DNA of 64,000 nt, taken from Bacteroidota bacterium (lineage in GTDB: Bacteria > Bacteroidota > Bacteroidia > AKYH767-A > OLB10). A program made the translations under genes and the position numbers. The stretch lies in NCBI GenBank assembly GCA_016714535.1, contig JADKDR010000001.1:466998-530997 (forward strand). Reading direction: 5' to 3'. The notes below the pieces were generated by a model. That model did not search any database. It saw only the letters and a list, made by a program, of their open reading frames with translations, and had not been told where the DNA came from. Below, piece by piece: positions 2,266 through 50,463 of the stretch (within the stretch, counting starts at the first letter, position 1; the number at the start of each line of letters is the position of its first letter).

Positions 2266-2278
2266 GTTGCACGGTTGA

Positions 2279-2743: not shown

Positions 2744-2903
2744 AATTTCATTTTTTTTGCGAATGTAGTTATTTCGCTAATTAGCTAATGGTGGTAGCTT
2801 AAATAATATTGGGCGGTTTGTTTTTATTTTAAAACGTCCTGGCTTACTCTTCAAATTAACTAACTAATATTTATAATTTTGCTAAACCAAACCCTTAATT
2901 AAA

Positions 2904-3773: not shown

Positions 3774-3845
3774 TCAATTTACGTTCATAGCCTAACTTTA
3801 GTGAAACCAAAAAAACGAGTTAAATGAATTGGTAGATAAAAGGAT

Positions 3846-5126
3846 TTATTTTCTGTCAATTATGAAACGCTTTCCAAAATGTCCTTCGTTCGTTCTGATA
3901 ACAACAAAATAGGCACCTTGTGCTAAGTGACTCACGTTAATGCTTTCGATATTATCTCCATGAGCATAAAAGTTTTTTATCGGTTGTGAGCTAAATTTTC
4001 CATCAGCGGAAAATAGTTCCATCATAACCTTCGTTCTTCGAAACAAGAGCATAGATAAAAATAACTCATCGTTGTTAACAGTAAGTTGAAACTCATGGGT
4101 GATGTTCGGAGTTGAGGGTATGCTTGCAAGCATGGTATCGGGATGGAATTTATAAATGGTGCGACCACTGCCTATTAAATTGGTGCTATCAAGTGCGTGA
4201 ATCCGATCGATACTAATAAACAAATTTCCGGTTAACGATGTGTTGCCTCCGTCTTTGCTAATGGCCATGCCAGGCAAATGCTGATCGCCAGTAAATAACA
4301 CACTGTCGTTCATAATAGCAATACCTCCTAAATTACCCACATTAGTTCCGTTCATTACATGATGTGTCCAGGTTTTACCACTGTCTGAAGTAGTAAGCAA
4401 TTCGCCAAGTGAAAAATTTTCGATCGAGGCCACTCCTATTCCATTTGGTTGAAAAAATATCTTCCATGTATATGTACCCACATTAGGTGCTATTGCATTT
4501 TGCGACTATGTTAGACCACCGTTATCAGTGTAAAGCATATTGGCCTTAAAGCTATTTGCTGCAGTTGCAGCGCCTCCAACAAGTATATGTAACGAATCGA
4601 ATACATAGCAATCTATCAGACAAGAAGAGAATGAAGACAAGTCATGAAAAGCCCAGTTAATGCCGCGGTCATGTGAAATATACAGTTGTGCCGGAGTATT
4701 AACACTTCCTACAGCTACAACCATATCCTTATAATGTGCCATACCACAAATGCCGGCATTAGGGCCCGGTAATGAGTCTAATAATTTCCAACTAAGACCA
4801 CCATCAGTTGTGCGAAAAATATTGGTAGTGTTTAATCCTAAAGGCAAAGTACCAACAAAACCAACACTATCATCCAAAAACTCGATGCTACGGATATAGC
4901 CAAATTTTATGGTATCACAAATGATATTCCATGTGTCGCCACCATCATTGGTCATGTAAATGGAATCTGCTTGTGCTATCCATCCCTTTGTTGGGCTAAT
5001 AAAACTAATATCTTCAAACCGGCCATAATCAGGCGCTCCTGCCACTTTGTACCAACCGTAGGATTAAGCCATTATGTTTAAGCCTGAGACCAAGGCAACA
5101 AAACTGAGAAGTAATCGAACTTTCAT
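3846..5126 (-). pseudogene. BNR/Asp-box repeat beta-propeller protein (Ycf48-like / sialidase-like fold) with T9SS type-A C-terminal domain. Interrupted by two in-frame stop codons.
   Basis: A single reading frame carries a signal peptide (MKVRLLLSFVALVSGLNIMA, ATG at 5126), then TAA at 5066-5064, then the body (track ORF 4506..5045), then TAG at 4508-4506, then the rest (track ORF 3846..4481). SxDxGxTW-type repeats (TNDGGDTW, TTDGGLSW, SHDRGINW, TSDSGKTWT). C-terminal YFVVIRTNEGHFGKRFII sorting-domain-like tail. Confidence 0.6.
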
Positions 5127-5233
5127 AACAATGCAATTAATTAAAACAAATCTACTCATCATTAATATCATGTGCAATGATGTAATCACTTCTTTACATA
5201 TAAATGGCAAAGCACATGCCTATGGCATGGCAA

Positions 5234-5806
5234 TCAGTTGAGTCGTCTCGAAATCAGATTTTGCAGTTTTTCGAAAAGTTGTAACGGTTTATATATACGC
5301 CAGTTTAAATCATCCATCTCACCTCCCGAAATAAAATAGCTATCAATATTATTTCGGTTCATTTCTCTGCGTACATGTTCGCGAAAATTAAGCATCACTA
5401 ACCACCCGTTATCATCTGCAAGGTCATCATACCACTCTTCGTAATAACAATCATCGCTTGCATGATAGTTTAATACATTCTCGCCTATAAAAATAAAGTG
5501 TTTGATACCCTGCGACATTAGTTCTTCGGCAATATCTCTTTTCAGGGTCATAATATCATTGTTTATGGCATCATTCCATTCTCCTATCATTTCGATAATG
5601 GCAAAGCCCAACTCATAATCTACAAAAAGCAATTTGATATACAGTGTTGGGGATCCTATATCATCCCATTGCGGGTGTATGTAATAATTGTATATCGTAT
5701 TTGTAAATTCAAACTCGTTGTATTCGCGCCCAAAAAAAGGAGACCCCTCATCCATGGAAGCATCGTACAAATCGCGCCAGCGGTAATATGGCTCTATATC
5801 CTGCAT
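5234..5806 (-). CDS. Hypothetical acidic cytoplasmic protein.
   Basis: 190 aa ORF with no signal peptide, rich in D/E/W/Y. No family recognised. Confidence 0.45.
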   Translation of the reverse strand: MQDIEPYYRWRDLYDASMDEGSPFFGREYNEFEFTNTIYNYYIHPQWDDIGSPTLYIKLLFVDYELGFAIIEMIGEWNDAINNDIMTLKRDIAEELMSQGIKHFIFIGENVLNYHASDDCYYEEWYDDLADDNGWLVMLNFREHVRREMNRNNIDSYFISGGEMDDLNWRIYKPLQLFEKLQNLISRRLN

Positions 5807-5917
5807 ATAATTATCTTAACGCAAAAGTACCGCAATTATTAACCAATTGTAAAGTCTTTATCTGCGAATTTATTTTTTTAAATATTTTTTTTGGGTACAG
5901 TATTTTGTTTATTGCGA

Positions 5918-6442
5918 CTATTGTAAGTAGGCATAAACTTCGATATTAAGATAATTGCCGTGCATTTTTTCTGCATCTTTTAAAGTTCCTTCTAATGCAA
6001 ACCCCAAACGAACAGGAATTTTTTTGCTTCGCTCATTGTCTGTTGCGCAGCGTATTTCTACCCGGTGTATATGATACACGTTATGCGCATGTTGCATGAG
6101 TGCCTTTGTGCAATCGGAAACAATTCCATTGCCTGCAAACTCTTCTCCAATCCAGTATCCAATCTCACAAGCGCAGTTGTAGGTGTCAATTTTATATAAA
6201 CCAATCCTGCCAACAATTTTATTTTCGAAAACAATAACAAATGCCTCTTCTGTGCCTTGTGCATATCGTTGCAAGGAGTTTTTTATAAAATTGGAAATAA
6301 AACTTGAATCGTGCATGTGTTCAACCCATGGCAGCCATTTGCCAAGGTATGCTCTATTCCTATTTGCCAAATCATATAATGGTATGGCCTGATGCTGGGC
6401 TAAACTTTCAAGATATATGTTGCTGCTTACATGTAGAACCAT
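5918..6442 (-). CDS. GNAT family N-acetyltransferase (RimJ/RimL-like).
   Basis: 174 aa with a GNAT acetyl-CoA binding region (RIGLYKID...CEIGYWIGEEFAGNGI). Confidence 0.75.
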   Translation of the reverse strand: MVLHVSSNIYLESLAQHQAIPLYDLANRNRAYLGKWLPWVEHMHDSSFISNFIKNSLQRYAQGTEEAFVIVFENKIVGRIGLYKIDTYNCACEIGYWIGEEFAGNGIVSDCTKALMQHAHNVYHIHRVEIRCATDNERSKKIPVRLGFALEGTLKDAEKMHGNYLNIEVYAYLQ

Positions 6443-6605
6443 TTTACAAAACTATTTCTTTTTTGCAAAGACAAATTGCCTTTTGTTTGATGCAAATCAA
6501 AACAAAAAAAACAGCCATCGCAACTTAAGCAATGGCTGTTTTTAAAATTAGTATTTACTTTTTATCTCGGATTAAAATAAGCCTAACGTTTTACGATGGC
6601 ACTTA

Positions 6606-9973: not shown

Positions 9974-10687
9974 ATGACAAAGTTGAGTGTAAATATTAAT
10001 AAGCTTGCCACCCTACGAAATGCTCGAGGTGGCAATAATCCTGATTTACTAAAAGCCGCTATAGACATAGAAAGTTACGGGGCTGATGGAATTACGGTTC
10101 ATCCACGACCTGACGAGCGTCACATCCGTTATGCCGATGTGTATGAATTAAAAAAGATAGTAACCACTGAATTCAACATTGAAGGGTATCCTGACGACCG
10201 ATTTTTACAATTAGTTCATGATGTTAAACCGCATCAGGTAACGCTGGTGCCCGATGCTCCTGATGTGCTAACAAGTAACAATGGTTGGGATGTTATCGCC
10301 AATAAAAAAATGTTGCAATCCATTATAACCGATTTGCAAAAAGCAGGTATGCGAGTGTCAATTTTCATGAACCCTGATGCAGACATGATGGAACATGCAG
10401 GAAATACCGGCACCAATCGTGTTGAGCTTTATACCGAAGCATATGCAACGCATTATGCACAAAGGCGAGAACTGGCAATAGCCAATTATCTGAACGCAGC
10501 AAAGGTAGCATTCGGGCATGGCTTGGGCATTAACGCAGGCCATGACCTTGACTTGCATAACCTAAAATATTTTGCACAGCATATTCCCAACTTACTCGAA
10601 GTCAGCATTGGGCATGCGTTAATTTGCGATGCTATTTACTACGGCCTGCAGAATGCAGTGCCTATGTATAAACGATTATTGCAGTAG
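9974..10687 (+). CDS. pdxJ: Pyridoxine 5'-phosphate synthase.
   Basis: 237 aa with a typical PdxJ N-terminus (LSVNINKLATLRNARGGNNPD) and correct length. Ends with TAG. Confidence 0.9.
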   Translation: MTKLSVNINKLATLRNARGGNNPDLLKAAIDIESYGADGITVHPRPDERHIRYADVYELKKIVTTEFNIEGYPDDRFLQLVHDVKPHQVTLVPDAPDVLTSNNGWDVIANKKMLQSIITDLQKAGMRVSIFMNPDADMMEHAGNTGTNRVELYTEAYATHYAQRRELAIANYLNAAKVAFGHGLGINAGHDLDLHNLKYFAQHIPNLLEVSIGHALICDAIYYGLQNAVPMYKRLLQ

Positions 10688-13943: not shown

Positions 13944-13977
13944 AATATTTTTTTAGTAAACTAAAAATAAAAATTTT

Positions 13978-14010
13978 GGCGGTGATGTCGTTTGGGTTGA
14001 CAGTCACCGC
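13978..14010. terminator. Hairpin (GCGGTGA-18 nt loop-TCACCGC) with flanking A/T runs. Candidate bidirectional terminator downstream of korB and ancestrally of tonB.
   Basis: Inverted repeat seen directly, flanked by aaaaataaaaatttt on the left and ttgaattaaaa on the right. Confidence 0.4.
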
Positions 14011-14215
14011 TTTGAATTAAAACTACCCCTTTTAATTTTTTATATGATTGAAAAGTATCATTGTCAATTTTTTTGTAGTGCTTTCAAGTACAATGTAATA
14101 ACGATTGACTTTATACTTTGTTTTATTGTTAAGCATTTTTTAACGGTACTAAGTTTTTGCCTCTTTGTATAATAGTACGAACGCATTTCATAGTTCGTTA
14201 GTGCATATTCAAATT
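13978..14215. repeat. Copy 1 of a ~235 bp direct repeat. Part of a decayed ~870 bp segmental duplication of the tonB 3' flank.
   Basis: About 85-90% identical by eye to 14847-15085. Shared strings include atgtcgtttgg, ttgaca, tcaccgct, gaattaaaactaccccttttaattttttatatg, tgttttattgttaagcatt, gcctctttgta and agtacgaacgcatttca. Confidence 0.6.
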
Positions 14216-14400
14216 TTTTTTTATTTTTAAAGCAAGTTCAATTTAACATTTAAACGTTGGCTGATTTGTACTTCTGGTTTCTATTTAGGTATTGCGCAAA
14301 TCAAGCGGATAGCATTTCAAAATCAACTGCTGCTTTCCGTCCGCAGTTGAAATGTATATGGTTAATAATTTTGTAAAACAAAAAAGTTCCAGGAGGCTAT
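14216..14400 (-). pseudogene. Degenerate remnant of the tonB 3' coding end (duplicate of 15089-15270).
   Basis: Copy-1 sequence ttctggtttctatttaggtattgcgcaaatcaagcgg...tttcaaaatcaactgctgc...cagttgaaatgtatatggtt parallels the tonB end ttcctggtttccatttaggcatgatgccaattaatcgtgc...tttcaaaatcagctgctcc...cttcaatgccattaatggtt. No intact ORF. Confidence 0.4.
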
Positions 14401-14808
14401 AAAATCAAAATCGAATTCATGTTGCTTTTTTATTGCAGAAACTTCCAGCTACATATTTTGAATTTTTTACTTCATAGAGAATCCGATAAAAATAATTTTT
14501 CATTCAGTTCATTAATTATTCTTAGAAGATAGCAGGCCATCCTATAGTTGACGTGAGCTGCAAGCTTATGCTAGCCATGCTAATGTTTAATAAAACTAAC
14601 AGTAACAGAATTTTGAAAACAAGAAAACTAGAAGATAAATTATTTGCTGGGACGAGCTAAACGCTCGCGCCAGCAGCGGATCTAGATGAGGATATTTCAT
14701 TACAAGGCCTATTAAAAAATCTATAAACGCCTTTACCTTTTATTTGAAGTAAAAGATTTTCTTGGTTACCTATAAATAAGGAATCCGAATTACTTCGGAT
14801 TTTTTTGT
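14380..14808 (+). ncRNA. Candidate small transcript or sRNA. Bacteroidetes-type -7 box TAATTTTG at 14366-14373, internal GC-rich hairpin at 14646-14674, intrinsic terminator at 14781-14808.
   Basis: Motifs seen directly. The 14646-14674 hairpin is GCTGG-GA-CGAGC-taaac-GCTCG-CG-CCAGC. A 37-codon ORF at 14419-14532 is not convincing as a coding sequence. No known RNA family recognised. Confidence 0.2.
14781..14808 (+). terminator. Rho-independent terminator.
   Basis: Stem AATCCGAA/TTCGGATT with a 4 nt loop, followed by TTTTTTT. Confidence 0.55.
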
Positions 14809-14846
14809 CTTTGTTGCAACTTAAATATGCACCAATAAAAAAGCGG

Positions 14847-15085
14847 AGATGTCGTTTGGTTTGACAATCACCGCTTAGAATTAAAACTACCCCTTTTAAT
14901 TTTTTATATGTTAGAAAAGTTATATTGTCAATTTTTTGTAGTGCTTAATTGGCAAGTACATTATTAGAACGATTGGCCTTATGCTTTGTTTTATTGTTAA
15001 GCATTATTTAACGCTACCAAGTTATTGCCTCTTTGTATGAAAGTACGAACGCATTTCAATTTTCGTTAGTGCCATCCGCAAAGTT
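14847..15085. repeat. Copy 2 of the ~235 bp direct repeat. This is the functional tonB 3' flank, including a terminator hairpin at 14847-14882 read on the minus strand.
   Basis: Matches 13978-14215. The minus-strand hairpin AAGCGGTGA...TCTCCGCTT is followed by TTTTTTATT. Confidence 0.6.
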
Positions 15086-15088
15086 TTT

Positions 15089-17100: not shown

Positions 17101-20005
17101 TTAATCAGCCTTATAAAACATAACCCTTTCGGCAAATTCACTGTTGCTAATCTCCATGAAGTAATAGGCTGAAGCAAAATAGCTTAGATCAATTTCCAAT
17201 TGCGCAGCGGCAAAGGGGTAATATTTTTCAAAAACCTTTTTACCTGCGGCACTGTAAATAGTACAAATCAGGCTTTTATTTTTTACAGTGGCAGGCAAGT
17301 TTACATACATAACCTGTTGCACAGGATTTGGATACACCTGAATATTTATTAAACCTTGAGTAACGCCTTGCCTTATATTTACAATACTGATAGAATTATT
17401 TCGCGCACACTTTTTATTGTCCTTTACGGTAACAATATAATTTCCAGCAACCAATCCGGTGGCAGTTTGTGTGGTTTGCAATGGACTGGTATTCCAGGTA
17501 TATCGGTAAGGTGTAAATCCATTGGTTGGTGTGGCTGTAGCTGTTCCATTGTTAAATAATGGTGCTGTGGCATCGGTTTTACTCATTGCTATTTGTATTT
17601 GTGCGGGCTGTGTTAATGTTGCTGCAATCGATTTGGTACAAGCATTAGCATCTGTAATGGTACAGGTGTAGGTGCCAGCTACGAGATTATTAATACTGGC
17701 AGTAGTTTTATTATTGCTCCACAAATAGGAATATGAACCTCCACCTCCCGAAGGGGATACGGTGGCTATACCATTTTTACTACCAAAACATTTTAGAATA
17801 GTTTGCGTTAAATTAGGGACAATGTCAGTAAACTGACTTACTGTAAAAGAGGATGTGGTGCTTACGCCATTTGTTCCGGTAACGGTAACAGTATATGTTC
17901 CTGCACCAAGATTGCCTGCAGGATTGGTAGTTGCACCATTGCTCCAAAGATAACTATACAAAGGCATACCTCCATTTGCAGAAATATTAATGCTGCCATT
18001 AGTTTGCCCAAAACATCCGGCATCTGTAACGTTGCCACTGTCAACTACAAGTGGTGCAGGTGCTGTTATAGTAAAATTGGTATTTGATATATCGAAAAAA
18101 TAATTATCTGCAGCTTCTACTCTTATACGATTAGTGCTTCCGGGATTATTGGGTACAATGAGTACTTCACTACCATCATTGGGTGAACTTGCATTAACAA
18201 TTATGGGATAAGTATTTCCCCCATCGGTACTAAGTAATATTCTAACATTGGCACAGTTTACCGGAGGTAGGTTGGTATTAATTACATTCCAACTAACGGT
18301 TTGATAAGTGCCAGCCTGCCAGGTAAGACCTGTGTTTGGAACGGTCACCGTAAACGGCCCTGATGCACTGTCAACCGTTAATACAACCAATGTATCGTTG
18401 TTAGTAATGCCTGCACCATTCGTGCGATTGTCGCGCACAGTAAGCCTGAATGCCATGTTACGATTATAACCTGGCAGTATTTCACCAATCGTTGTAGTAT
18501 TGTTTATTATATCCGAAATCTTGGGAAAAGTGCGCGTAGCACTTACTACAGGAATAAAAGGCCTGAACAATGGGGCATTACCAGCAGGTACATTCCATGT
18601 ACCTGCTGGCCCAAGGTCAAACTGCTCCCAGCAATAAGTTAAGGCATCATTGTTTGCATCTGTGGCAGCACCTGTTAAGCTAAATGGTGTATTTCGGGGA
18701 ATGGTCTTATTAACTGGTAAGGAAGTAATTACAGGAGGGGTGTTTCCGGTAGCAATAATAGTAGCGCACGTATTTCCATTTCCGGTTTGAGTAAAGGTAA
18801 CAAGATCATTAAAGCTCTTTGCATGAAATGTTGGGATACTATTAGGCGCCAGATTGTTTACACCACAAATGCCTGCATACGCCTGAATGGTTATTCCACT
18901 GCCGGGCTCGTATGCAGATGAAGAAGAACGATTGCCATTACAAGAATTGGTAATGGCATTAAAAGTATGCGGGCCACCATACTGATGTCCTATTTCATGA
19001 GCTACATAATCGATATCAAATGGATCGCCAATGGGGTTACCACCTCCGGTAACTCCACGTGCTTTGAAGTGCTGCTGCAAGGAGAATTTAACGAGGCAAC
19101 ACCTCCTCCACCGGTACTAAATACATGTCCTATATCATAGTTAGCAGTTCCAATAACAGCATCGCAATTGGTTTGGTTCTGTCCAAGCATAGTGCTACCG
19201 CTATTATTGGTATAAGGATCTGTTGCGCCATCGGTATAGATAATTAGCGTATCATTTGGAATTAGTAACATGCGAATATCCACTTCTGATTCATAAACTC
19301 CATTTACACGATTAACAGAAGTAATAATACCTGCCAAAGCACCCGCTTTAGTACCACCATAGTAAGTGGTGTACTCACCCGTAGCAGCCATAGCCAGTCG
19401 GTATGTACGCAACTGTGTGCCACTGCTTCGGTTGCTGTTGTTGGCCACCGATTTAATTTCATTCATATCTACCACATCATCGTTTTCACAAACAAAGGGA
19501 TACTGCCGCTTGCATTGGTTTTTATCAAACACGGCATAATACTTTTCGTTACCATGAATACAAGGGTTAATCAATATCCATTGCTCACCACCAAAAACCA
19601 TTGCATGAAAACCCCATGGTGTATAATCAATTCTTGCTTTTATATGACGGCTTCCAATCTCACTTGCAAGAAAAGTTTTTATTTCAAATGCCTTTTCCTC
19701 TTCTTCAATAATCAGGTTATAATGATAAACTTCAAAATGATGCAAACTGCCATCCGGAAAAGGAAGCGTAAACCGCAGACCCGGAGAAGGCTTTGCATCA
19801 AACGACTCTTGTGGCGCCTTATTTAATTCGGATTTTACTGCATCAAAATCAATGCTATAGTAACTTGTCGAAACCGGATAATCCATTGCTAAACTTCCGG
19901 AAATAACAGGGCGACCAATTCTTTTAAAGAATGACTGTGAGTGCGCAGTGCTAAGGAGAATTGAAAAAATGATACTTAGCTTAATGGCGTATTTTATTTT
20001 ATTCA
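17101..20005 (-). CDS. Secreted reprolysin-like (M12B-type) zinc metallopeptidase with SprB-type repeats and a T9SS type-A C-terminal domain. The reading frame is interrupted by an apparent 1 nt deletion near 19064-19066.
   Basis: N-terminal part (track ORF 19002..20156; probable start MNKIKYAIKLSIIFSILLSTAHS at 20005) and C-terminal part (17101..19080) overlap in different frames. [14 protein letters not shown] HExxH motif. Restoring one A in the minus-strand AAA run gives the continuous read ...[30 protein letters not shown]. SprB-like repeats (CFGQTNGSINISANGGMPLYSYLWSNG). C-terminal QVYPNPVQQVMYVN...MEISNSEFAERVMFYKAD tail. Confidence 0.65.
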
Positions 20006-20226
20006 TATGAATGATGGATTTATTTTTTTTTAAAAGTAGAGAATCTTTTTCAATAAGATATAACACACACTGAAAGCCTGAAAAAAAAATCGCGGAAGCA
20101 TTGAAGCTAAAACATTTAAAACAGGAAAATTGGAAAGTATTTGCTTTAATAAACAAACCACTAAATGAATAGTTTCCTTAAACGTTGGATAAATGTTTGT
20201 AAATTATTCGTGCTAAAAAGCTGTAA

Positions 20227-26002: not shown

Positions 26003-27204
26003 AAGTACTTCAATTATGCCTTCGTATTCCTTTTCAACAAACTGATGGAGGTAATATTGCCATGTACAATATTGCCGATAGTCTGGTGGATGCAGGTTGC
26101 ACGGTGAAGATGCTTGCCTTTAATACGAAGAAACACTTTCTAAAAGAAAATGAAATTGACGCTGATAAGAAAAAACGCTTTCAGTTGCAGTGGGTTTATC
26201 TAAATGCTGATGTGACTGCAATGGGTGTGGTCAAAAATTTTTTCACTAACGAGTCTTATCACATTAGCCGCTTTCATACAGCAGAGATGGAAACTGTATT
26301 GCGCGAGCTCCTGATAAACGAAACTTTTGACATTATTCAATTTGAAAGTTTATTTATGGCACCTTACCTTGCTGTAGCGCGCAAATACAGCAGCGCCAAG
26401 TGTGTGTTGCATGCTCACAATGTAGAAACCATTATATGGCAGCGGTTAGCAGCTGGCGAAAAAAATTTTTTAAAAAGAAAATACCTCGGTTACCTCACTG
26501 CCAAGCTTGACCAATATGAAAAAAAAATGTTGCAACAGTTTGATGCTATTGCAGCACTTACACCGGAAGATAAAAAATTGATGCAGCTAATGGGAAGCAC
26601 TTTACCCATTCAAAGTTTCCCTATTGGAATTGATACAGGCCGTTATAAACAAGAATTAACATTCAACACTAAAATAAAATTGTTTCACTTAGGCTCCATG
26701 AACTGGCTACCTAACGTTGAAGCCATTCAGTGGTTTGCCGATAGCATACTTCAACCCTTAGTTCAGACACTGCCTAACATCGAAGTGCATCTTGCAGGCA
26801 GGCATATGCCTGTGGCATTTTTCAATTTACATGATAACACTTCATGCTTCGTATATGGTGGCATTGACAACCCACTAGAATTTGTACATGACAAGCAAAT
26901 AATGATTGTACCCTTGTTGAGTGGTGGAGGAATGCGGGTAAAAATTATTGAAGGCATGGCTGCGGGAAAAATTATTGTAAGCACTACCGTAGGTGCCGAA
27001 GGTACCGGCACGGTAGATGGCAAAGACATTCTAATTGCTGACACGCCATCAGCATTTATAGAAAAAATAAAGCTGGCTGTTACTGACAAAAATTTAATGT
27101 TGCGAATTTCGGAGAATGCTATTTTTACAGCCCGCGAAAAATTCGATAATAAGGTTATCGCTAAAAATATATGTGAGTTTTATTCATCATTAATAACTAA
27201 ATAG
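25999..27204 (+). CDS. Glycosyltransferase family 4 (GT-B fold).
   Basis: 401 aa. Start overlaps the lptF/G stop (ATGA). C-terminal GT1/GT4 motif region (EGMAAGKIIVSTTVGAEG). Confidence 0.75.
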   Translation: MKVLQLCLRIPFQQTDGGNIAMYNIADSLVDAGCTVKMLAFNTKKHFLKENEIDADKKKRFQLQWVYLNADVTAMGVVKNFFTNESYHISRFHTAEMETVLRELLINETFDIIQFESLFMAPYLAVARKYSSAKCVLHAHNVETIIWQRLAAGEKNFLKRKYLGYLTAKLDQYEKKMLQQFDAIAALTPEDKKLMQLMGSTLPIQSFPIGIDTGRYKQELTFNTKIKLFHLGSMNWLPNVEAIQWFADSILQPLVQTLPNIEVHLAGRHMPVAFFNLHDNTSCFVYGGIDNPLEFVHDKQIMIVPLLSGGGMRVKIIEGMAAGKIIVSTTVGAEGTGTVDGKDILIADTPSAFIEKIKLAVTDKNLMLRISENAIFTAREKFDNKVIAKNICEFYSSLITK

Positions 27205-31972: not shown

Positions 31973-34900
31973 ATGAAAATCACTCTTTTTCTTTTAGTAT
32001 ATATTATATTCATGCAAAACCTATTGCATGCACAAGTAAATACTTGGCAGCGTTCGCATGGCACAAGCAAAGATGATCACTGCAATAACGTAATAGTTGC
32101 ACAGGATGGCAATTACATTGCCTGCGGCTATAGTTACGGTACTGATAGCCTTGGTACAGCCGACTTTCATATGATTAAAGTGGACTCAACCAACGGAGAT
32201 TTATTATGGACCTGGTCAGAAGGTAATGGTGGCCAGGAAACAATAACAACTATAGAAGAAACAAAAACAGGTGCTTTATTAGTTGCCGGAAATACATCAC
32301 CAGTCCAACTTTATTTGTCCAGTGATGTTATGCTATGCAAGGTTTCAGCAAATGGAAATTTGATTTGGAAACAAACATATCAATTGCCAGATTCGCAATT
32401 CTGCAATGATATTGCTATTCTACCTGATGGCAATATTTGCTTGGTTGGCTTGAATCGTACTGCTGCCGGTGATTCTTCCGGATTTTTTATGAAGGTTGAT
32501 GCAACAGGAAATTTAATTGACTTTAAGCTGTATGACATTATAGGAAGCGAATATTTTTCAGGAATTGTTTTTACAAAAGACTCCATGCTAGCTGTAAACG
32601 GCACAAGTATTCAACCATTTCCTGCCAGCAACAAAATTTGGATGCTAAAATTCGACTGGAATGGAGATACGATTTTTACTAAATTAAATACGTTTTATAA
32701 GTACTACACCGGTGTACCATTAGTGCAAAATATAAATGGAAATTTTATCTTGAATGTGCGCGAATTAAACACTTGGTCTTGGGTACACATCCTTTTGTAT
32801 GATAGCAATTTTAATTTGTTAGACGATTTAAATTGGGCAAACTATTACAGCAGTCCTCTTTGTATATCCGTTTCAGGGATTAATGAAAAATTTACGGTGG
32901 GCAGGTCTGATTCATATGGCCTCATGATTGAGCATTATAAAGATACGGGTGCAATTGAAGATTTAATGAGTTATAATCAGGTATTTCGCCCGAGTAAATT
33001 TTATGGTGGCGGTATTGACTTTGCCCTGTCTACAAAATACTACGCGATAAATAATTCGAAGGAAGGCATTGTTGTAGCAGGCAGTACAACTTTTAACCTC
33101 AACAACTCTTTTGATTTTTGTTTGGTAAAATATTCCGACTCACTTAAGTTAAATTTTAATACGTTAACTCCTACACCAAATTTTGTTACCGATACCATAT
33201 GCGAAAGCGATTCTATTTTGCTTTACGTTATGCTGAATGACAAGCTGAATAATATCTGGCTGATAAATGACGATACAATTTATGGACTTGGAGATTCAAT
33301 TTATGCTAAACACAGCGGGTCTTATACCCCAATTGGTTTTGATATTGAACAGAATTTTATAGCAGGAACCAGTGCACGTGTTGTTGTGTTAGACACGTCA
33401 ATTGTAGGTTCTATGTACATTAGTATTAACAAACCATACTGTAAATATGATGGCGATACAGCAATCATAATAGCACCTTTGAATAGTAAGGCAACTTATC
33501 AATGGCAATTGAATGGGGTAAATATTCCCGGAGCAACAAGCAATCAGGTAAAAGCAAACGGCACCGGAAACTATCAATGTGTGTATAATTTTGGTTGTGC
33601 CACCAAGGTTTCCAATGTTGTATATATAAATGACAGTGCTGCAATTACTGTTAGTTTGAATACCTCAACTGGGATATACCGTAGTTATTGTAGTGGAAGC
33701 AAAATGGATCCTTCATTATTAATAATGCAAGCATCAAACAATGTTACCTATAACTGGTACAATAACGGTAACTTAGTTAATACCGGTACTAATTTGCCTA
33801 CAATCAAAGAAAACGACAGTATTTGGTATGTAGTGTCTGTAAATGGCTGTGGTATAGACACATCATTATTTGCGTATTATATTGATGAGCCTTTACAACA
33901 AACCACTGCATGTAATTATGTTGGTGATACAATAGAATTTTGCAACAATGACAGCGTAGAATTTTGCAGTGGAAGTACAAACTGGAAGCGAAACGGAACT
34001 ACCATACCAAACGTTACATTGCCGTTTTATGCTACACTTGCCGGGTCGTATCAATATTATTATCAAACCGGAAACTGCGGGGCTTGGTCTATTCCCATTT
34101 TTATTGTAGATAATTTACCTGACAGTATTAATTTCAATACCTATCCTAATGATACAGTATGTACAAGTAAGGTTAGTATATATGCCTTGCCATATAATAA
34201 TTTATCAACCTACTCCTGGTATTATAAAGGCAACTATTTAAACGACACTGCCAGCATAACTGCCGACAGTACCGGATGGTATAGGTGTGTTGTTCATTCT
34301 CCCAATTGTTTGCAACAAATAGTGGATAGTATATACATTGTAAAATTGGGGTCAGCTGCAAAATGTATTGCACAGGATTCAATGTATAACACTTGCACCG
34401 ATAGTGTAATAATAAAAGATGCAAGTCCAGATAGTAATGCAAATTATGTATGGTAGAAAAACAATAGTAACATGCAGTTGCCTTCAAATACCACGCAGAT
34501 ATTAGCAAATGAAGCTGCCAACTACAAATTTACTAAGACCATTTATGGCTGCAACTTGAATTCAAATACGATATTAACTCAGGCAAGCTTTAATGAGTTG
34601 ATAGATACAGATACAAACACTTGTGTACCATGTAATGGAAGTGTTAGTATACTAATTGATTCCGTTTTGCAACCACAATACTTATGGTCGAATAGCAATA
34701 CCACAAACAAAAATGAAATGCTTTGCCCTGGTGTTTATTATGTAACAGTAACAAATAGCACATGCAGCAAAGTTATAACCACCTCTATTCTGCAAGGAAT
34801 AAATCTTGATGCCAACTACTCTACAAGCCCGCCAAGTGCAGCAGGATGTGATGGTAATTTTTCTTCCATTATTTATGGTGGAACTCCACCCTACAACAAA

Positions 34901-36022
34901 TCATTTATTCCAATTGCAACAGACAGCACACTTTGCGTAAATACTACTTATAACTTCCTAGTTGAAGATAGCAAAGGTTGCATAGTTACAAAAACCAATG
35001 CCTATTATTACCATAGCGACAATGATACCTTGTGGCCAGGCGATGCTGACAAGAATGGCTATGTTGACAATTATGATTTAATGTCTATCGTAATGCATAA
35101 TTATGAAAACGGTATTGCACGCAATACACTGACCATACAATGGCAACCCATATTTCCAACAATAAATTGGATGGGGACTTTACAAATAAATAATGTTGAT
35201 CGCAAACATTCTGATTGCAATGGAAATGGCCTGATAGACACCATTGATGCTGATGCAATTATTTTAAACTATGGTATTACAGGAAAAAACAGTTATGCAA
35301 AACCGTTTGATCCTGCCGGGCCGGAATTGAAATTTATTTCTGCAAAAACCAACTATGCAGCAGGCGAAATGGTTGAAATAATTGTAGTAGCCGGAACAAG
35401 CCAAAAACCAATATACAAACAAAAGTTTCTGGGCGTACAAGTTGAATTGCCATTACAAGTAATTGAGCCAGGAACAATATCTGCGACTGATATTTACAAT
35501 CAGTCATTTCCATTATGGGATGATTATAAATTTGCACAGAGTGATGGTGCCATACAATGTGATTTTGCACATGCAGTTTTTAATAATTTTAATTTATTCA
35601 ACTGGCATGGAGAAGTTTTCAGAATAAGTTTTCAGGTTGCAAATAATTTGCAAAGTGTTCAATCACATCAAGTTGAAATTAAAAACTACAGACTAATTGA
35701 TATGACTGATGCATCAATAATAATGAATTACCAGCCATTAACCCTAGCATTCAATCCGGTTTCGATAGCCGATCAAATGCATGACAATGGTATTAGTATT
35801 TTCCCTAACCCTGCGAATGGCGAGCTTAATATATACGCTAACAAACAAATGATACGCTATGTTGAACTAACAGATGCAGCAGGCCGCGCAATTGTACAAT
35901 TGGCAACAATGGAAAACCAAATTAAATTAAACATAAGCGATGTTAGCAATGGATTATATCAATGCAAAATAATATTGAATAATGATCAAGAAATAAAGTC
36001 AAAAGTGAATATAATGCATTAG
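31973..36022 (+). pseudogene. Giant T9SS cargo paralog 1 (signal peptide, beta-propeller-like repeats, SprB-type Ig repeats, dockerin-like module, type-A C-terminal domain). Interrupted by an in-frame TAG at 34454-34456.
   Basis: Track ORFs 31973..34456 and 34472..36022 are in the same frame. Alignment to paralog 2 (DTDATYTWYKNNFQVAL vs DSNANYVW*KNNSNMQL) puts the TAG where paralog 2 has Tyr (TAT). C-terminal FPNPANGELNIY...YQCKIILNNDQEIKSKVNIMH sorting tail. Confidence 0.6.
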
Positions 36023-39000: not shown

Positions 39001-40119
39001 TGCATTCCTCCGGCCACAGATACTACATTATGCCAGAATACTAGTTATACAATAAATATTACAGATAGTCTTGGGTGTGTTGTAAGCTATAACCAGGCAT
39101 ATTTTTTTGCTACCATTAATGATACCATTTGGCCTGGCGATGCCGATAACAATAACATAGTTGACAACTACGATTTATTACCAATTATAATGCATCATGA
39201 TGAAACCGGCTTTATACGCACCAATCAATCTATCTCCTGGCAACCCCTTACTCCTACTTTTGACTGGTTAGGAATATTACAGCAAAATGGAAAAAATCGC
39301 AAACATGTAGATTGTAATGGCAACGGTGTAATTGACACCAATGATGCTGCCGCAATTAAATTAAATTACAATATAACAGGCAAAACGAATTATCCCCTAC
39401 TAACTGATTTAACCGGACCACCATCAAAAATAAATACGACAAAATTAAATTATATAAATGGCGAATATGTAGACTTGCTTGTAACTGGAGGTTCTTCTAT
39501 AAAAAAAGTACAAGGCCTAAAGTTTATAGGGGCTCAACTAGAAATCCCATCTTACCTTGTTGAACCGGGAACCTTTGTTGCCACTGATTCGAGCAATCAG
39601 CTATACAACTATCTTGAAAATTATAAAATGTTAAATTACGACACTTCTTACCAAGTCGATTTTGCACAATGTATATTTGATAACATCTACCTTAATCAAT
39701 CTTACGGAGAGCTATTTAGAATAAAATTTAAATTGAATTCAAATTTACCATCTAATCTTTCACATACCTTTTCAATAAAAAATTATTTGGCGATAAATAA
39801 TTTTGATACTGCCATATTAATGAATGTGATACCATTAACACTGACTTTTAATTCATATTTGTATGTCGATTTTTTAGAAACTCACGGAGTTTCAATCTAT
39901 CCTATTCCTGCAAAAGATTATGTCGATATTTATTCCCCGAATGAGAGAATTAATCAACTTGATTTAATTGATACAAAAGGAAACATGATATATACATTTA
40001 TGATTGGAGAAAACAACTACAGAATAAATTTAAAATCTATAAGCAATGGTAATTATTATTGCAACATCTATCTTAATAGTAATATTAAATTAAATAAAAG
40101 GATCACTGTTTTACATTAG
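36076..40119 (+). CDS. Giant T9SS cargo paralog 2 (intact, about 1347 aa): signal peptide, beta-propeller-like repeats, SprB-type repeats, dockerin-like module, type-A C-terminal domain.
   Basis: Single uninterrupted ORF. Probable start MKQFIIVIFICMNFANASAQ; the track lists an upstream GTG at 36046. Contains the WPGDADNNNIVDNYDLLPII and DCNGNGVIDTNDAAAIKLNY calcium-binding loops. C-terminal VSIYPIPAKDYVDIY...YYCNIYLNSNIKLNKRITVLH. Confidence 0.7.
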   Translation: MKQFIIVIFICMNFANASAQVNTWRRAHGTSGQDYAQSIKVAPDGNFIVAGTSNGSDTTGTNNFYIMKLDSSNGNKLWSISIGDGGYENLTAMKISKNGDIIAAGVKAAIIGNPIKFEDVIVCRISQQGNLLWQQTYQLPDTQFCKDLVELPDYSICIIGYNLSPQNVKSGMFLKIDSAGTFIAIKKHIYSSPIVYLGIVFTHDSILMVNAMSNELSVSSILWMIALNDEGDTTKVKWTSFYKSNAKFPMVQTLCNNFIQSKEYSDTWSWIHIVRHDSTGNYKDYDDYGTYYSFSGVASPSLISCSAAICEGTHYGVGVSIYKDSFNLEFKKYATVVGPIKDWIWTFQNHIDVSFYLLDFQTEGLVALGSAKYGGNGTYDYVVMKFDQNLALNFDVSKPIPNIASAKNCESDSTLLYVKTNKKKYTTWVHPNGNVVANHDSIYVVNTNEYVPISYDDDSNYVVGQIATIQYVDTSINPILGINGLANYCKYDGDTAILTATANGNATYQWQLNNIDIPGAINNVCKANGIGTYQCLYNFGFAQQVSNLIAINDSSKTKVDLNTSLGIYRDYCIPKMDPLLKFTTINNNATFNWYNNDSLVYTGTTLPIANYNDSIWYIQAVTGCGTDTSLYAYYIDEPLQQTIACNFAGDTIDLCLADSIELCGGGTAWKRNNLLIPNVQLPLYIKQTGTYQYQYTTGNCTTWSLPIYITDNLPKNLQIISSPNDTVCDSIATLNVVPVVNNCIYTWYKDGVMILDSTILSVNEDGWYKNSATVNGCPAAYTDSIFIKIVNFKSNLTTLDTNLNLCKDSILIYDLYPDTDATYTWYKNNFQVALANPTFSLWVTDSGKYQVKKEKYLCNSYSPMITTYKNIATSLNITNSSCVTCNGSIKLTTDSALQLYYLWSTGQTINAINNLCQNLYTVTVSNTYCTKTLGINILSMPFISAFFNPKPPDINICNGKLNANIVGGKPPYSITCIPPATDTTLCQNTSYTINITDSLGCVVSYNQAYFFATINDTIWPGDADNNNIVDNYDLLPIIMHHDETGFIRTNQSISWQPLTPTFDWLGILQQNGKNRKHVDCNGNGVIDTNDAAAIKLNYNITGKTNYPLLTDLTGPPSKINTTKLNYINGEYVDLLVTGGSSIKKVQGLKFIGAQLEIPSYLVEPGTFVATDSSNQLYNYLENYKMLNYDTSYQVDFAQCIFDNIYLNQSYGELFRIKFKLNSNLPSNLSHTFSIKNYLAINNFDTAILMNVIPLTLTFNSYLYVDFLETHGVSIYPIPAKDYVDIYSPNERINQLDLIDTKGNMIYTFMIGENNYRINLKSISNGNYYCNIYLNSNIKLNKRITVLH

Positions 40120-40145: not shown

Positions 40146-43100
40146 ATGAAACAACTACTATTAATTTTTTTGTTATTGATTTTTGGGTTTCAATCCAAAG
40201 CCCAGGTAACTACCTGGTGCAGGGCACATGGAACTCAATTTCACGACTATATCAAAGAAATAAAGGTAGCAAATGATGGCCATTATATTGCATCAGGTCA
40301 TTCAATTAATCCCGACACTAACTTACTTGCAGATTTTTATGTTATAAAAGTGGACTCTTCAAATGGCGAATTGATTTGGCAAACCTATGTGAGTGCGGCC
40401 GAAAGTCAGAAGTTGGTTGCTATGGATATTTCGAGCAATGGTGAGATAATTTTGGTTGGCAGCAATGACGCGAAAGATGTTTCTTATTGGGGAAATAATG
40501 GAGACCAAGTAGCTGTTGCTAAACTAGCATCTAACGGCAAGCTTATTTGGAACAAAATTATAGCCATACCCGATACCCAATATTGTCATGATGCAATTTG
40601 TTTGCCTGATGGCAGTATTGCAATTGTAGGTCTTAATAGAAATGCCGCAGGTGTTTTTAGCAATTTTTTTATGAAACTTGATTCGGCTGGTGATTTTCAA
40701 TTTATCAAGCTATATGGTAGCACGCCAAGCGATAGGTTTAGTCATATAATAAATACCAACGATTCCTTAATAGCAGTTTTTGGAAACACCAATAGTAATA
40801 GCCAATTTGTAAAATTTTGGTTTCTGAAATTTGATTTGAATGGCGATACCATTTTCGCAAATAATTCGTACTTTGGATCGGACGGTGTGTTTACTCAAAT
40901 GAAAAATGATACGTATGTAGTAAACGGAAGAGTTTCTCTTGGCTCGAATGTTGCAATTTTAAATTTTGACAGTTCATTTTCTTTGACAGGTTCTAATAAT
41001 TACAGTTCATATAGCAACTATCCAAAATCAATAAGCGCTTCCAAAATTACAAACAAGGTAATTGTTTCAAATTATCAATATTCAGGTAAATATTATGTAT
41101 TTAAAGACACTGCTAGTCAGATGGTCATTGATAAACAATTTTATATATTTAATGACCAAACTCTGTTTTACCTTTTGCAAGGGAATGCCCCATTGAGTTG
41201 GTATGAGATAGGAAATAGTCAAGAAGGGTTCGTAGCTGCTTTTGAAAAATCAATGAATTCTAGCATGGGATTAGATTTTATAATATCTAAGTACGATCAG
41301 AATTGTAATCTTAATTACAGTAATAGTAAACCAACAGTAAACGTTCCTGCCGGTGACACTTTGTGCTTAGGTGATTCAGTCTTACTATATATTACAACAA
41401 ACAAAAAACTTTACACCAACTGGATATCAAATGATGGAAAATTCTACCATAAAGGTGATAGCTTTTATGTTAAGAGTACTGGAAATTATTTTGCAGTATG
41501 TTATGATATTGACAGCAATTTGATATTAAGTGAGATACGAAATATATATTTTAAAGACACTGTGCCAAGTTCCTCAATAAAAGTAAATGGCCCATCAGAA
41601 TTTTGCAGACTTGCCGGTGATTCACTTTTTTTATCAGTTGATTCAAACATATATGTTCAATTACAATGGCAACTAAATGGAATAGATATTCCTGGTGCTA
41701 CTAAAAAAAGTGTATAAAGTACTTGCTACAGGAAATTATCGTTGCGCTTTTATTTATTCCTGCGATACAATCTTCTCAGCTCCAGTATTTATAAATGATT
41801 CCACTCCACCTAATGTATCACTTAATTCCTCAATTGGCACCTACTACCCTTACTGTAACAATAAAATGTTTCCGCAATTGTCGGCAACTTCCAGCACCAA
41901 AAACACTTTATTCAAATGGTATAATAATGGAATCCTTATAGATTCAAGTCAATCTCAATACTTAAATCCAAGTTATGGGAATGATAGTATATGGCATGTG
42001 GTGGCAGTTACTGCCTGCGGCACCGATACATCACTTTATGCTTACTATAGTTTGGAACCGCAACAACAAACTCTTGCATGTGGCATGGCAAACGATACTG
42101 CGATTTTGTGCTTTAATGATAGTATTGAATTTTGCACAGGAGGCACCTATTGGTACCTCAATGGAATTTACACAAACAATGTTACGCTACCACTTTATAT
42201 TAGCAAGCCGGGAACATATAAATATGAGTACACAACAGGCAACTGCACTACATGGTCCTTGCCAATATATGTTATTGATAAAATGAATGATAGTTTGAAA
42301 ATAAAAATATCACCCAATGACACAGTGTGTAATAAAAAAGTGACATTAAATGTAATGAGCCCGCAAGCAAACGTGCTATATACTTGGTATAGAAATGGAC
42401 TTTTTTTTAGCACCAATGATACCGTTATCACAGGGGTATCAGGTAACTTTCATTGTGAAGCCTTTATAAATGGTTGCGATACTTTATATTCAGACACTGT
42501 CTATATTCAGACTGATTCAGTGCCGGCCGAAATATTTAAGCTAAATAATTTTACCAATTTATGCGATGCTGACTCTATATTCTTATTCGACTATAATTTT
42601 GACACCAATTATGTATATGCATGGAAAAGGGTAGGTAACAGCTTTGTATATAGCAATACTTACTTTTATCGCCCGTTAGCAGTTGGGAATTACTATTTTA
42701 CAAAGTCTTCGAAAACTTGTGTTGTGATTTCTGATACTGTGCAAATTACATCTAACAATTCTAACCTAAACGCAACCATAACTACAACGCCCTCGGCTTG
42801 CAGCCCATGCAATGGCAGTGCAACTATCACCGCTAATAACCCTACCAACTTTAATTACTTGTGGAGCAATTCCCAAACCAATCAAACCGCTTACAATTTC
42901 TGTGGAGGTACATATACAGTTACAGTTAGCGTACCGGGCTGCAGTAAGAGTTTTAATTTCATGTTGGGCAACAGCACTCCGGTATCTGCAATTGCAACTA
43001 CTACAACGCCTTCTTTTGGCATATGTGACGGAACAATTGCCTTTAATATTATCGGAGGCTTTGCACCTTATCAAACTTCGCTTATTCCAAGTGCCCCGTT

Positions 43101-44196
43101 GACTGCACTTTGTCAGGATGTAAATTATAAGGCTACACTAACTGATAATAAAGGATGTACATTTGTAATAGACTCTGCGTTTTACTACAAACTAAGTTAC
43201 GATACAATATGGCCTGGCGATGCTGATAATAATGGCTTTGTTGACAATTATGATGTTGTACCCTTGCTACTGCAAGATGGCCGTACAGGAGCAACTCGCG
43301 TTGATACAACTATTGCTTGGCATCCCATCTTTCCGGCATATGATTGGAATGGGACTAAGCTTTACAACAATATAAATTGCAAACATATAGACACAGACGG
43401 AAATGGAATAATCAACATAAAAGACACTGCGGCTATCACTCTAAACTATGATGTTACAGGCAAGAAAAATTACAACCTGCAATTAAATCCGCAAGGGCCT
43501 GAGCTATATGTTACTGCCAATGCATCACAGTTTATGCCTGGCAATCAAGTGGTACTGAATTATTATGCAGGCACGCAATCAAACCCCTTTTATATTCTAC
43601 GCGCTTTTGCTGCACAGACATTTATTCCTAAAGAAGTTATTGAGCCCGGCACATTTAATTTAAGCTCACAAAATAATTTTTTAACAAACTTTTCTTTTGG
43701 GTATTTCTTTGTTAAATCAGATACTAATTTTCAAATAGATGTAGCTTTTGGTAATTATAAATATGGGTTTCCAAATGTTTATGGAGAACTATTTACCATT
43801 TCATTCGATGTTGCGAGCTCCCTATCGCAAGTAGTGAATTTTGCTCCAGCTATTAATAATTATACGGCTCATGTTTCAAATGAATTACAAATAGCATGCT
43901 CACAATCAATTACGCCACTTACCTTTTTGCCTGTAGGTATTTATGAAACACATTTGCAAGACAATATAATTATCTATCCTCATCCGGCTAAAAATGAAGT
44001 TTCAATCAGCTCTTCTAATGACATAATCAAAGCCATTAAGATTTATAACTCAAGCAGTAAAAATGTTTTCTCCGCAAATTCAAATTCGAATAGATTTACT
44101 ATCCAAACCGAAAATTTCCCAAACGGATATTATCAAATTCAGATACAACTCGGTAATGGAAACTATGCAAATAAAAAATTAATAATAATTCATTAA
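40146..44196 (+). CDS. Giant T9SS cargo paralog 3. The reading frame is broken by a +/-1 shift in an A7 tract (41703-41709).
   Basis: Track ORFs 40146..41717 and 41695..44196 overlap. Both paralogs 1 and 2 read through the equivalent position (YQWQLNxxxIPGA...NGxGxYQCxYNFG). Same domain order as paralogs 1 and 2. C-terminal IIIYPHPAKNEVSI...YYQIQIQLGNGNYANKKLIIIH. Confidence 0.6.
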
Positions 44197-47865: not shown

Positions 47866-48627
47866 TTATATTTTCTCCAAGGCCTTCTCGTCTATCCAAC
47901 CCTCATTGCCGTTTGCAATGCGAATTTTTTTCCATCCCTTTAATTCATCGAGGATAGTAACCTTGGTACCATCGTGTAACATAAATAGGTTTGCGCCTTT
48001 ATCGTCAGGCGAACTTTTCACATATGGATTGGTTGCAAAAATGATGGCCTCGGGAGTATCGTTCAGAATTTTGCTTTGTGAAGAGGCAACATACCAAAAC
48101 GTGAGTGTAAGCACCAGGCAAATTAACGATGCAAAAAACGAAAACTGCCTCAATCCATATTTGATTGAAAACAAATAAACGATGAAAAAAATAAGCGTAA
48201 GCCAAAGACATATAATAACGGTATAGCTGCGTATGTTAAGCGATGTACCTGCAATAAATCCATACCACCACTTTTGATAAAACACCTGAGGCACCGGTTC
48301 TATCTTATCTACTGTTTGCAAATTTGCTAAACGCAAATTGTAAATAACATCCTCATCAGCAGGATTAATTCTTAAAGCGCGCTCAAAGTTTAAAATCGAC
48401 TTAGCTATTTCGCCTGATTTGTAATAAGCATTTCCTAGATTATAATATAAAGCAGCATTAGCCGGGCTTTGCTTTATCATTTGCTCATATGCAATGGCAG
48501 CCTTTTCAAAATCGCCATTCTTATAAAACAATGCAGCATCGTTTTCTTTATTTGCCATGGCAAATAGAAAACTTAGCTGCATGCCAAGTAAGAGCACTAT
48601 GTTATGCTTTCGAAATTTCATTTTCAA
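47866..48627 (-). CDS. batE: BatE-like protein (TPR repeats, TM segment, SH3-like domain).
   Basis: 253 aa. TPR region (ALYYNLGNAYYKSGEIAKSILNFERAL), a central TM, and a C-terminal SH3b-like segment (GTKVTILDELKGWKKIRIANGNEGWI). Last gene of the Bat operon. Confidence 0.65.
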   Translation of the reverse strand: MKMKFRKHNIVLLLGMQLSFLFAMANKENDAALFYKNGDFEKAAIAYEQMIKQSPANAALYYNLGNAYYKSGEIAKSILNFERALRINPADEDVIYNLRLANLQTVDKIEPVPQVFYQKWWYGFIAGTSLNIRSYTVIICLWLTLIFFIVYLFSIKYGLRQFSFFASLICLVLTLTFWYVASSQSKILNDTPEAIIFATNPYVKSSPDDKGANLFMLHDGTKVTILDELKGWKKIRIANGNEGWIDEKALEKI

Positions 48628-50463
48628 TTTGAGTAATCACCTTTACCGCATTTTCGTATACGAGCTTTGTTTCGGTAGCAGCATTTGGAGCAAAGCGCGC
48701 AAACTCGCATTTATCAAGCGTTTGGGTAAGCATGGCAATGGTTTCGGACTGCACTTGCTTTGCCTGCAATTTTTCGGTTGCGTTCTCTTTACTAAAATCA
48801 CTTAGGGGCAAAGTAATTTTATCGCTTACATATCCTATCAGTGCTTTATATGTTTCATCATAAAACTCGTTAGTTTTATTTTCATTTTGAAACTTGCTGG
48901 CTAGTGCTAATTTTTTTGAAGCAATGCGTCCGGCACCCCGGCTTTTTGCTAAGGCAACATTACCTTGCAATTCGCTTAGTCGCGACTTATAAGCTATAGC
49001 TCCTGCCCCTAACAGCAACGGCAATAATAGCAGCGAATAAAATTTCCATGTACCATAAAAGTCGTTGCCTCCGGCCGATTGCAAAGCCTCACCGGTTTTA
49101 TATAACGTATATCCTTACTTATTACAGCTACATCTGTTTTGTTGGCTCCGGCATTTTCTATCACCGTTGCATTATTGCCATCGCCCTTGGCCACTTTAAT
49201 GGTGAAGGGGCCTTTGGCCACTTCCTTATATGTTTTTGTTTCGAGGTCGAAGTAGGAAAATCGCAATGCATCAATGGTGTATTCCCCTTCATGTCGGGGT
49301 ATAAGCAGATATTCAAATGTTTTGTTTCCACTTGTTCCGCTTTCAGAAACATTGATGTTATCATCCACCTTGGGGTCATAAGTTTCTATATCTCCCGGCA
49401 CACTTATTTTTGGGGCTTCAACTAATTTCAAATTTCCCTTACCACTAACTTTTACTTTTAAGGTAACCGCTTCGTTGGCTTTGGTTTCGCCCTTGTCAAG
49501 TTGTGCATCAAACTGCAGTCGGCCTACAGCTCCATTAAATGATGCAGGTGCATTTGCCGGCAAGTCTTTTACATTTATCTTAAAAGCATCGCTGCGTATC
49601 TCAACTTTTTGATTTTGATATCCTCCTCCAAAAAAAGGATCATTAAAAATATCAAATGGATCGTTCGGATTACGATTGCGTTTTACCTGCACCTGCGCAA
49701 TAGCCTCGCCCTTCATAGGGTCTATGGTGATGGTACCACTTTGCTGTGGGAATAAAATAAATTTCTTAACTACCAATGTTGCGTAACGCGTCCCATTATA
49801 ATTCTCGTAAGTAGCAGGTGTGTTTTCGGGCACATTAATTTCTGAACTCCAAAATCCATTAAAGGATGGCAGATCGGAAATCATGGGACTAGACAAGGCA
49901 ACACTAGTATATAGTTTATAGGTAATAAGTACTCCCTCGCCTATATATAGATTACTTTTATCTATGGAGGCACGTATAAATACTTGTTTATTGGAAGTTG
50001 CCGATGTAGCATTATTAGCTCCATTGTTTACTCCCGGATTTTGCGATTGTGCCTGATTAGATGCCTGACCTTTGGTGCAGGTCATCGTGATTGCGTTACT
50101 GGTATATGTTTTGCCATCAATATTCACACTGGCACTTCCTATTTTCAATGAGCCTTCCTTTAATGGAGTTAGGTAGTAGCTGTATGATGAGGATACGGTA
50201 GTACGCCCGTTTACCATGGTAAAATTATTGCTTTGAAAAGGTCCGCCAATTACCTGAAAATCTTTAAAGTCAGGCTGCTTAAAGGCATTGCCATTTCCTC
50301 CTTCAATGGTAAAAGTTATTTGAAAACGGTCGCCAACGGCAACCTGATTTCTGTTAACGGTAGCTGTAAACGATTGTGCTCCAACAAACTGATAAAAGAA
50401 TAACATCGCCCCACAAAGGATTATGGAATGAGTCAGTAGTCTTTTTATGTTTTCCATTACCAT
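48602..50463 (-). CDS. batD: BatD-like protein. The reading frame is interrupted by an apparent 1 nt indel in a T4/A4 run at 49096-49099.
   Basis: Track ORFs 49009..50463 and 48602..49084 overlap. Adding one A gives the continuous read ...DIRYIKTGEALQSAGGNDFYGTWKFYSLLLLPLLLGAG, which is a typical BatD C-terminal TM helix. N-terminal signal peptide present. Confidence 0.6.

Follow-up and report, generated by a model that had tools for sequence, protein, structure and literature searches.

A premature TAG codon in one of three tandem genes for predicted type IX secretion cargo of a Bacteroidota bacterium

What does it mean when a large and otherwise well-kept gene is split by a single in-frame TAG, a mutation of the organism, a recoded codon or an error of the assembly? 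This question is raised by a locus on the 789,280-bp contig JADKDR010000001.1 of assembly GCA_016714535.1, a metagenome-assembled genome (MAG) of a Bacteroidota bacterium. We analyzed 64,000 nucleotides of this contig (positions 466,998 to 530,997 of the forward strand), in the following called the window, and all coordinates refer to this stretch. The gene in question, P1, is located at 31973..36022 on the plus strand and belongs to a tandem family of three paralogs, P1 to P3, for proteins which are predicted cargo of the type IX secretion system (T9SS). On balance we hold it for probable that the TAG is a real and very young nonsense allele in the sampled population. P1 may then be a null allele, that is, a pseudogene in the making which is perhaps still polymorphic. 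As a feature the TAG is nothing out of the ordinary, a premature stop in a redundant family; a young pseudogene and an assembly error are both thoroughly known.

The TAG occupies 34454..34456 on the plus strand. Around it, positions 34448-34480 read GTA TGG TAG AAA AAC AAT AGT AAC ATG CAG TTG, that is, V W * K N N S N M Q L. The two open reading frames (ORFs) 31973..34456 (827 amino acids, aa) and 34472..36022 (516 aa) use one common frame. A preliminary description of this DNA had stated that they are separated by the TAG alone, and we confirm this, as open stretches of 832 and 521 codons flank the single TAG and no other stop lies between them. The annotated ORF of the C-terminal part starts with the ATG at 34472, and GenBank enters the two halves separately as MBK8845388.1 (hypothetical protein, IPO27_02070) and MBK8845389.1. 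When the TAG is read through, the conceptual product of 1349 aa matches P2 with 42.4% identity over 1350 columns (E = 0) and both halves are collinear with P2. Judged from this alignment, the end-to-end match of P1 and P2 cannot be chance.

In P2 the codon aligned to the TAG is TAT, as had been described, and the remaining local DNA is identical over 15 nucleotides (TGG TAx AAA AAC AAT). The TAG would thus most parsimoniously have arisen by a single-base substitution from TAT (Tyr) to TAG. Two points of the preliminary description need to be modified. The replaced tyrosine had been called conserved, which is correct with regard to P2 and overstated beyond it. In the orthologous column Tyr is found only in P2, and P3 has Lys or a gap. 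Furthermore, among 11 instances of the internal repeat motif of the family, [YF]xW?xxG, the residue following the W is Y in six, Q in three, and K and S in one each. The duplicated family is real as well, the alignment however reveals three tandem copies and not two.

The paralogs share 36-43% identity with one another. P2 (36076..40119, plus strand; MBK8845390.1, IPO27_02080) is intact, encodes 1347 aa from the ATG at 36076 within an ORF which is open from 36046, and served as reference for P1. P3 (40146..44196, plus strand) is frameshifted into 40146..41717 and 41695..44196 by an extra A in an A7 run. The modules follow each other in the order delta-60-like N-terminal region, immunoglobulin (Ig)-like repeats, two SprB-type repeats, dockerin-like module, unassigned domain and C-terminal domain (CTD). 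The delta-60-like and Ig_7-like repeats are weak matches. Two of the modules match repeats of giant SprB-repeat proteins, and no match of the family to Pfam's own SprB model was reported. The dockerin-like module is weak, too, and reads WPGDADNNGxVDNYD ... DCNGNGxID; it is followed by a domain of about 200 aa without assignment which precedes the CTD. The C termini of all three proteins match Pfam PF18962 (P1 46.6, P2 28.8 and P3 38.7 bits, cut-off 27), and the C-terminal part of P1 also matches NCBIfam TIGR04183 (41.8 bits, cut-off 23). By eye only, the N terminus MKITLFLLVYIIFMQNLLHAQ/VNTW resembles a signal peptide with charged start, hydrophobic core and AQ end, likewise in P2 and P3.

The position of the TAG with respect to these domains suggests what the stop would do. 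The N-terminal part of P1 (31973..34453, plus strand; 827 aa) comprises the putative Sec-type signal peptide (MKITLFLLVYIIFMQNLLHAQ), the weak delta-60-like repeats and Ig-like repeats with the motif Y-x-W-x-x-N-G. The C-terminal part (34457..36022, plus strand; 521 codons) is without signal peptide and carries the SprB-type repeats, the weak dockerin-like module and the T9SS type A sorting domain, which lies wholly downstream of the TAG. We suggest that a TAT to TAG substitution occurred in one of three old tandem paralogs for T9SS-secreted proteins of about 1350 aa. Translation of P1 would end after residue 827. The N-terminal product, having a putative signal peptide, would reach the periplasm and would lack the SprB-type repeats, the dockerin-like module and the type A sorting domain. 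From what is established about T9SS cargo, a product without sorting domain would neither be exported by the T9SS nor attached to the surface. The downstream ORF starting at 34472 has the sorting domain and no signal peptide, and its product could thus probably not reach the T9SS even if it were translated. If the stop is real, P1 would therefore be functionally dead, since the TAG removes the sorting domain.

The case is like that of other young single-lesion pseudogenes of bacteria in that there is one single stop, of a codon which serves as a normal terminator elsewhere in the genome, the halves match an intact paralog and an essential C-terminal domain is lost. It differs from these in that it is based on a MAG consensus, that an orthologue to date the lesion is missing, and that relaxed constraint is not detectable.

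That nonsense-type decay occurs in this genome can be seen at another gene of the window. The window has five gene-breaking lesions besides the TAG of P1, namely three homopolymer frameshifts (P3, an M12B peptidase and BatD) and two nonsense codons, both of which are found in a gene for a BNR/Asp-box T9SS cargo protein (3846..5126, minus strand) at a distance of about 29 kb from the TAG of P1. In this BNR gene a TAA at 5064-5066 replaces a Gln at the end of the signal peptide (...NIMA-Q-SYGW), and in the Asp-box SxDxGxTW (TDNGGLT-W) the place of the Trp is taken by a TAG at 4506-4508. A related organism (L079; Logan assemblies SRR14932590 and SRR14932592) is syntenic with window positions 1-9518, an extent of 9.5 kb or more, at amino-acid identities of 66-90%. 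The syntenic BNR orthologue (P0008; L079, L080) is intact, has 425 aa, is 71% identical and carries Q and W where the gene of the window has its stops. In an alignment of 12 sequences, conservation at each of these two columns is at least 90%. The gene shows further changes, D-to-N and W-to-S in two Asp-boxes as well as I-to-M, in columns which are invariant in 11 homologues. Altogether it deviates uniquely at five conserved columns, the nearest orthologue at one. Five conserved-site changes within 1.3 kb, in a gene flanked by intact genes, indicate decay and not sequencing noise. The BNR gene is thus, on the alignments, demonstrably a real, decaying pseudogene. It proves that T9SS cargo genes of this lineage do decay by nonsense mutation, which speaks for a real allele in P1 as well.

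The options named in the preliminary description, a recent nonsense mutation, a base-call error or much less likely read-through, still hold, and the absence of a second lesion and of rate acceleration means that the lesion is either very young or artefactual. A consensus or polishing error is a possible explanation, in our judgment less probable than a real allele though to be taken seriously. The organism would then have a sense codon at this site (TAT, TAC or another one) and P1 would be an intact gene for 1349 aa. The G at 34456 would have arisen when the Nanopore reads were basecalled and merged into a consensus (CANU, Racon, medaka 0.6.5) or in a single Racon round with Illumina reads. 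The entry MBK8845388 with its tag IPO27_ is bracketed by Danish activated-sludge MAGs (MBK7291221, MBK7854582 and MBL0105591, tag IPP51_), and from the accession and locus-tag series we therefore infer the same submission, PRJNA629478. The accession series falls within the Nanopore-based activated-sludge MAGs of Singleton et al. 2021. In this project CANU was run on the Nanopore reads followed by Racon, two rounds of medaka 0.6.5 and one Illumina Racon round (PMC8012365). That the MAG was presumably built from noisy Nanopore reads with one Racon round of Illumina polishing weighs against a real allele, and so do the following observations. The same window contains three frameshifts which resemble consensus errors. 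These are single-base changes in A runs (A7 in P3, A5 to A4 in BatD, A3-4 in the M12B gene) of genes which are otherwise well conserved, and sibling MAGs carry the same kind of frameshift. T to G is a rare type of natural substitution in an AT-rich genome. P1 shows no decay apart from the TAG: with P3 as outgroup it has 140 unique changes and P2 has 148 (p = 0.64), downstream of the TAG the numbers are 45 and 54, which gives no sign of relaxed constraint, and this single lesion is not accompanied by a second stop or frameshift in 4 kb. The missing decay fits an artefact equally well as a very recent mutation. A real allele could not be old, given that no further lesions have accumulated; we estimate its age at well under 1% neutral divergence. 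A second genome of the species was not found in the searched collections. Finally, a collection of 15 billion proteins contains no Illumina-derived copy of the P family, which may mean that short-read coverage is low.

Against an error speaks above all the type of the lesion. Residual errors of a Nanopore consensus are homopolymer indels (PMC9262707). The broken genes seen in sibling MAGs are frameshifted, with T6-T7 runs at their junction regions. With its three homopolymer frameshifts and its presumably identical source, the window is like the Illumina-polished Nanopore R9.4.1 MAGs in which such errors are described (Singleton et al. 2021; Sereika et al. 2022). The TAG of P1 differs from these errors, as it is a T-to-G-type substitution within GTATGG-TAG-AAAAAC and thus outside any homopolymer. 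In addition, about a dozen coding homopolymers of 8-9 nucleotides in the window are in frame in intact genes. Short-read polishing was therefore effective in the window, and polishing also removes substitutions, which are the easiest errors. We also estimated how many nonsense codons would arise by error. In the coding sequence of the window (58.4 kb) only 4.6% of random substitutions lead to a stop. With substitution errors as numerous as the three frameshifts, 0.14 nonsense codons would be expected per window, with a probability of 0.13 for one or more and of 4e-4 for three or more, and three are observed. A nonsense to frameshift ratio of 1:1 is characteristic of natural pseudogene spectra and unlike Nanopore noise. 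On inspection, the three nonsense sites do not share a significant motif which would point to a systematic, methylation-linked miscall. Only the 4-mer CCAT/ATGG is common to the vicinity of the three sites, which we estimate to happen by chance with about 20%, and it was not counted.

A real stop codon could also be tolerated because it is read through. Functional read-through or recoding of the TAG by a suppressor tRNA, by a pyrrolysine-like system or at a leaky UAG-A, such that full-length P1 is still made, is very improbable in our view. The frame after the TAG is open for 521 codons and conserved as in P2, the BNR gene contains a second in-frame TAG, and in Escherichia coli an A after the stop codon provides a weaker termination context. 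In having an in-frame TAG where homologues have a sense codon, P1 is also like genes of known recoding systems, that is, pyrrolysine or the TAG-to-Gln recoding in some phages. It differs from such systems, however, in that TAG is a frequent and correct terminator here. The 40 genes of the window end with TAA (30), TAG (6, that is, 15%) or TGA (4), and the TAG-terminated genes have proper C-termini: the Pfam match of PdxJ extends over positions 1-233 of a 234-position profile, with 2 residues left before the TAG, and the match of Rpe covers the whole model of 198 positions and ends 14 residues before its TAG. The three TAG terminators cited in the preliminary description (pdxJ 10685-10687, the glycosyltransferase 27202-27204 and paralog 2 at 40117-40119) are correct, and its argument against a genome-wide reassignment of TAG is borne out by these counts. 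A bacterial reassignment of TAG is not known from Bacteroidota. As the BNR gene also contains an in-frame TAA and other signs of decay, its TAG is damage and not code, and the two TAGs replace different residues, one Tyr-like and one Trp. The 120 nucleotides after the TAG of P1 do not form an RNA structure (fold z = +0.93), and neither a tRNA nor an Rfam match was found in the 64-kb window. Recoding was thus rejected on the basis of terminator usage, the co-occurring TAA, the lack of structure and the lack of a tRNA in the window. Equally hard to credit is reversible on/off switching, a crude phase or antigenic variation in which P1 by its TAG and P3 by the A7 slip tract are held in the off state. 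Two of the three otherwise intact old paralogs (36-43% identical) indeed have exactly one lesion each, one of them in a mononucleotide tract. A point nonsense codon is however not a reversible switch, A7 is below the typical length of a contingency tract, and the same types of lesion occur in the unrelated BatD and M12B genes, with frameshifts in sibling MAGs as well. Furthermore, chance lesions are to be expected in the P genes since they are the longest in the window. Somewhat less remote, though still improbable, is that the lineage sheds or switches off its T9SS surface proteins, such that the lesions in P1 (TAG), P3 (A7), the M12B gene and the BNR gene are all true null alleles of the population. 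This would reflect a recent shift of lifestyle or a selection which favours on/off diversity in an orphan adhesin family, and read-through or transcriptional slippage might still rescue the genes at a low level. Five of the six lesions are located in cargo genes. Such genes however account for about half of all coding sequence by length, and this enrichment is not significant (binomial p about 0.11).

We return to the real, young nonsense allele as the preferred explanation for P1, while the three frameshifts of the window appear to be of a different nature. In P3 there is one surplus A in the A7 run at 41703-41709. A run of A6 would give GATKKVYKVLATGNYRC, which is equal in length to the corresponding stretch of P1 and P2; the downstream piece, P3b, is a separate entry in GenBank (MBK8845392). 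The M12B (reprolysin-like) peptidase gene (17101..20156, minus strand) codes for SprB repeats and a T9SS CTD and lacks one base near 19061-19066, just upstream of the HEIGH zinc motif. Positions 3-120 of the Reprolysin_4 profile are matched in the upstream ORF and positions 124-193 in the downstream ORF. The gene for BatD (48602..50463, minus strand) has lost one base from an A run at 49096-49099, which is now A4 instead of A5. It is part of a conserved operon MoxR-DUF58-BatA-BatB-BatC-BatD-BatE. The orthologue of BatD (P0296; 616 aa, 86% identical) is uninterrupted and reads DIRYIKTGDALQ, and nearly all of the best 120 BatD homologues listed have a length of about 580-650 aa, whereas the "protein BatD" of GenBank is a stub of 482 aa. 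The split of BatD is probably a Nanopore homopolymer error.

Sibling MAGs contain similar breaks. In one of them a MiaB-like gene is broken between its UPF0004 and Radical_SAM domains, and the region of the junction contains a T7 run (L015, 16200-16300). In another one a Beta-lactamase2 gene is split into profile positions 1-44 and 69-214, here with a T6 run around the junction (L062, 14620-14725). This crude screen of 82 kb, in which only breaks confirmable by Pfam were scored, yielded these two frameshift splits and no confirmed nonsense split. For that data set, this suggests a background of about one homopolymer frameshift in every 20-40 kb. As sibling MAGs show the same kind of frameshift, those in P3, the M12B gene and BatD are probably assembly errors.

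Independent of the TAG, the P family itself is of some minor interest. With its putative signal peptide, the matches to TIGR04183 and PF18962 above cut-off and its repeat modules, P1 is like the T9SS type A CTD cargo with SprB repeats, that is, the adhesin-like or SprB-like proteins of Bacteroidota. The family differs from this cargo in its full architecture, for which no full-length homologue is found in protein sets of 5.8 and 1.84 billion. In the search of 5.8 billion clusters only the N-terminal part of P1 and P2 themselves were retrieved, and no full-length homologue from outside this MAG. A profile search with the C-terminal part against 1.84 billion representatives gave, among the 150 matches listed, only the three proteins of the MAG itself as full-length matches. 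Scanning the GTDB representative genomes with the family alignment resulted only in partial matches of 21-51%, mostly to the region of the Ig and SprB repeats. Metagenome contigs of the Joint Genome Institute (JGI) contained only distant partial matches to the family and no match to the exact DNA pattern around the TAG. Relatives are found only for the region of the Ig-like and SprB-type repeats. Exact-protein look-ups of the window proteins gave no match, and the protein searches recovered no member of the P family outside this MAG, the related organism with the intact BNR gene included. The P family thus appears to be an orphan with a new architecture among T9SS type A cargo, which is mildly interesting.

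About 11 genes of the window carry Por_Secre_tail or CHU_C domains, and these account for about half of the coding length. The cargo genes are those for the M4 and M12B peptidases, the BNR protein, P1-P4, two small CTD proteins, an FG-GAP protein and a PKD/CHU_C protein. With eleven CTD-bearing genes within a 64-kb window it is likely that the T9SS machinery is present in the genome.

For the biology of the organism the TAG has little weight. If the stop is real, a family of secreted proteins with redundant members has gained a further young pseudogene; otherwise the TAG is an assembly error. Its value is rather in annotation, as the halves of P1 and at least P3b are entered in GenBank as separate proteins and the truncated BatD as "protein BatD", and the six lesions in the window call for caution by users of this MAG. 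As a side observation, a stretch of 1.1 kb at 13944-15088, which on both strands is without an ORF of at least 50 aa and has neither an Rfam match nor a tRNA, is T-rich with several T7-T9 runs.

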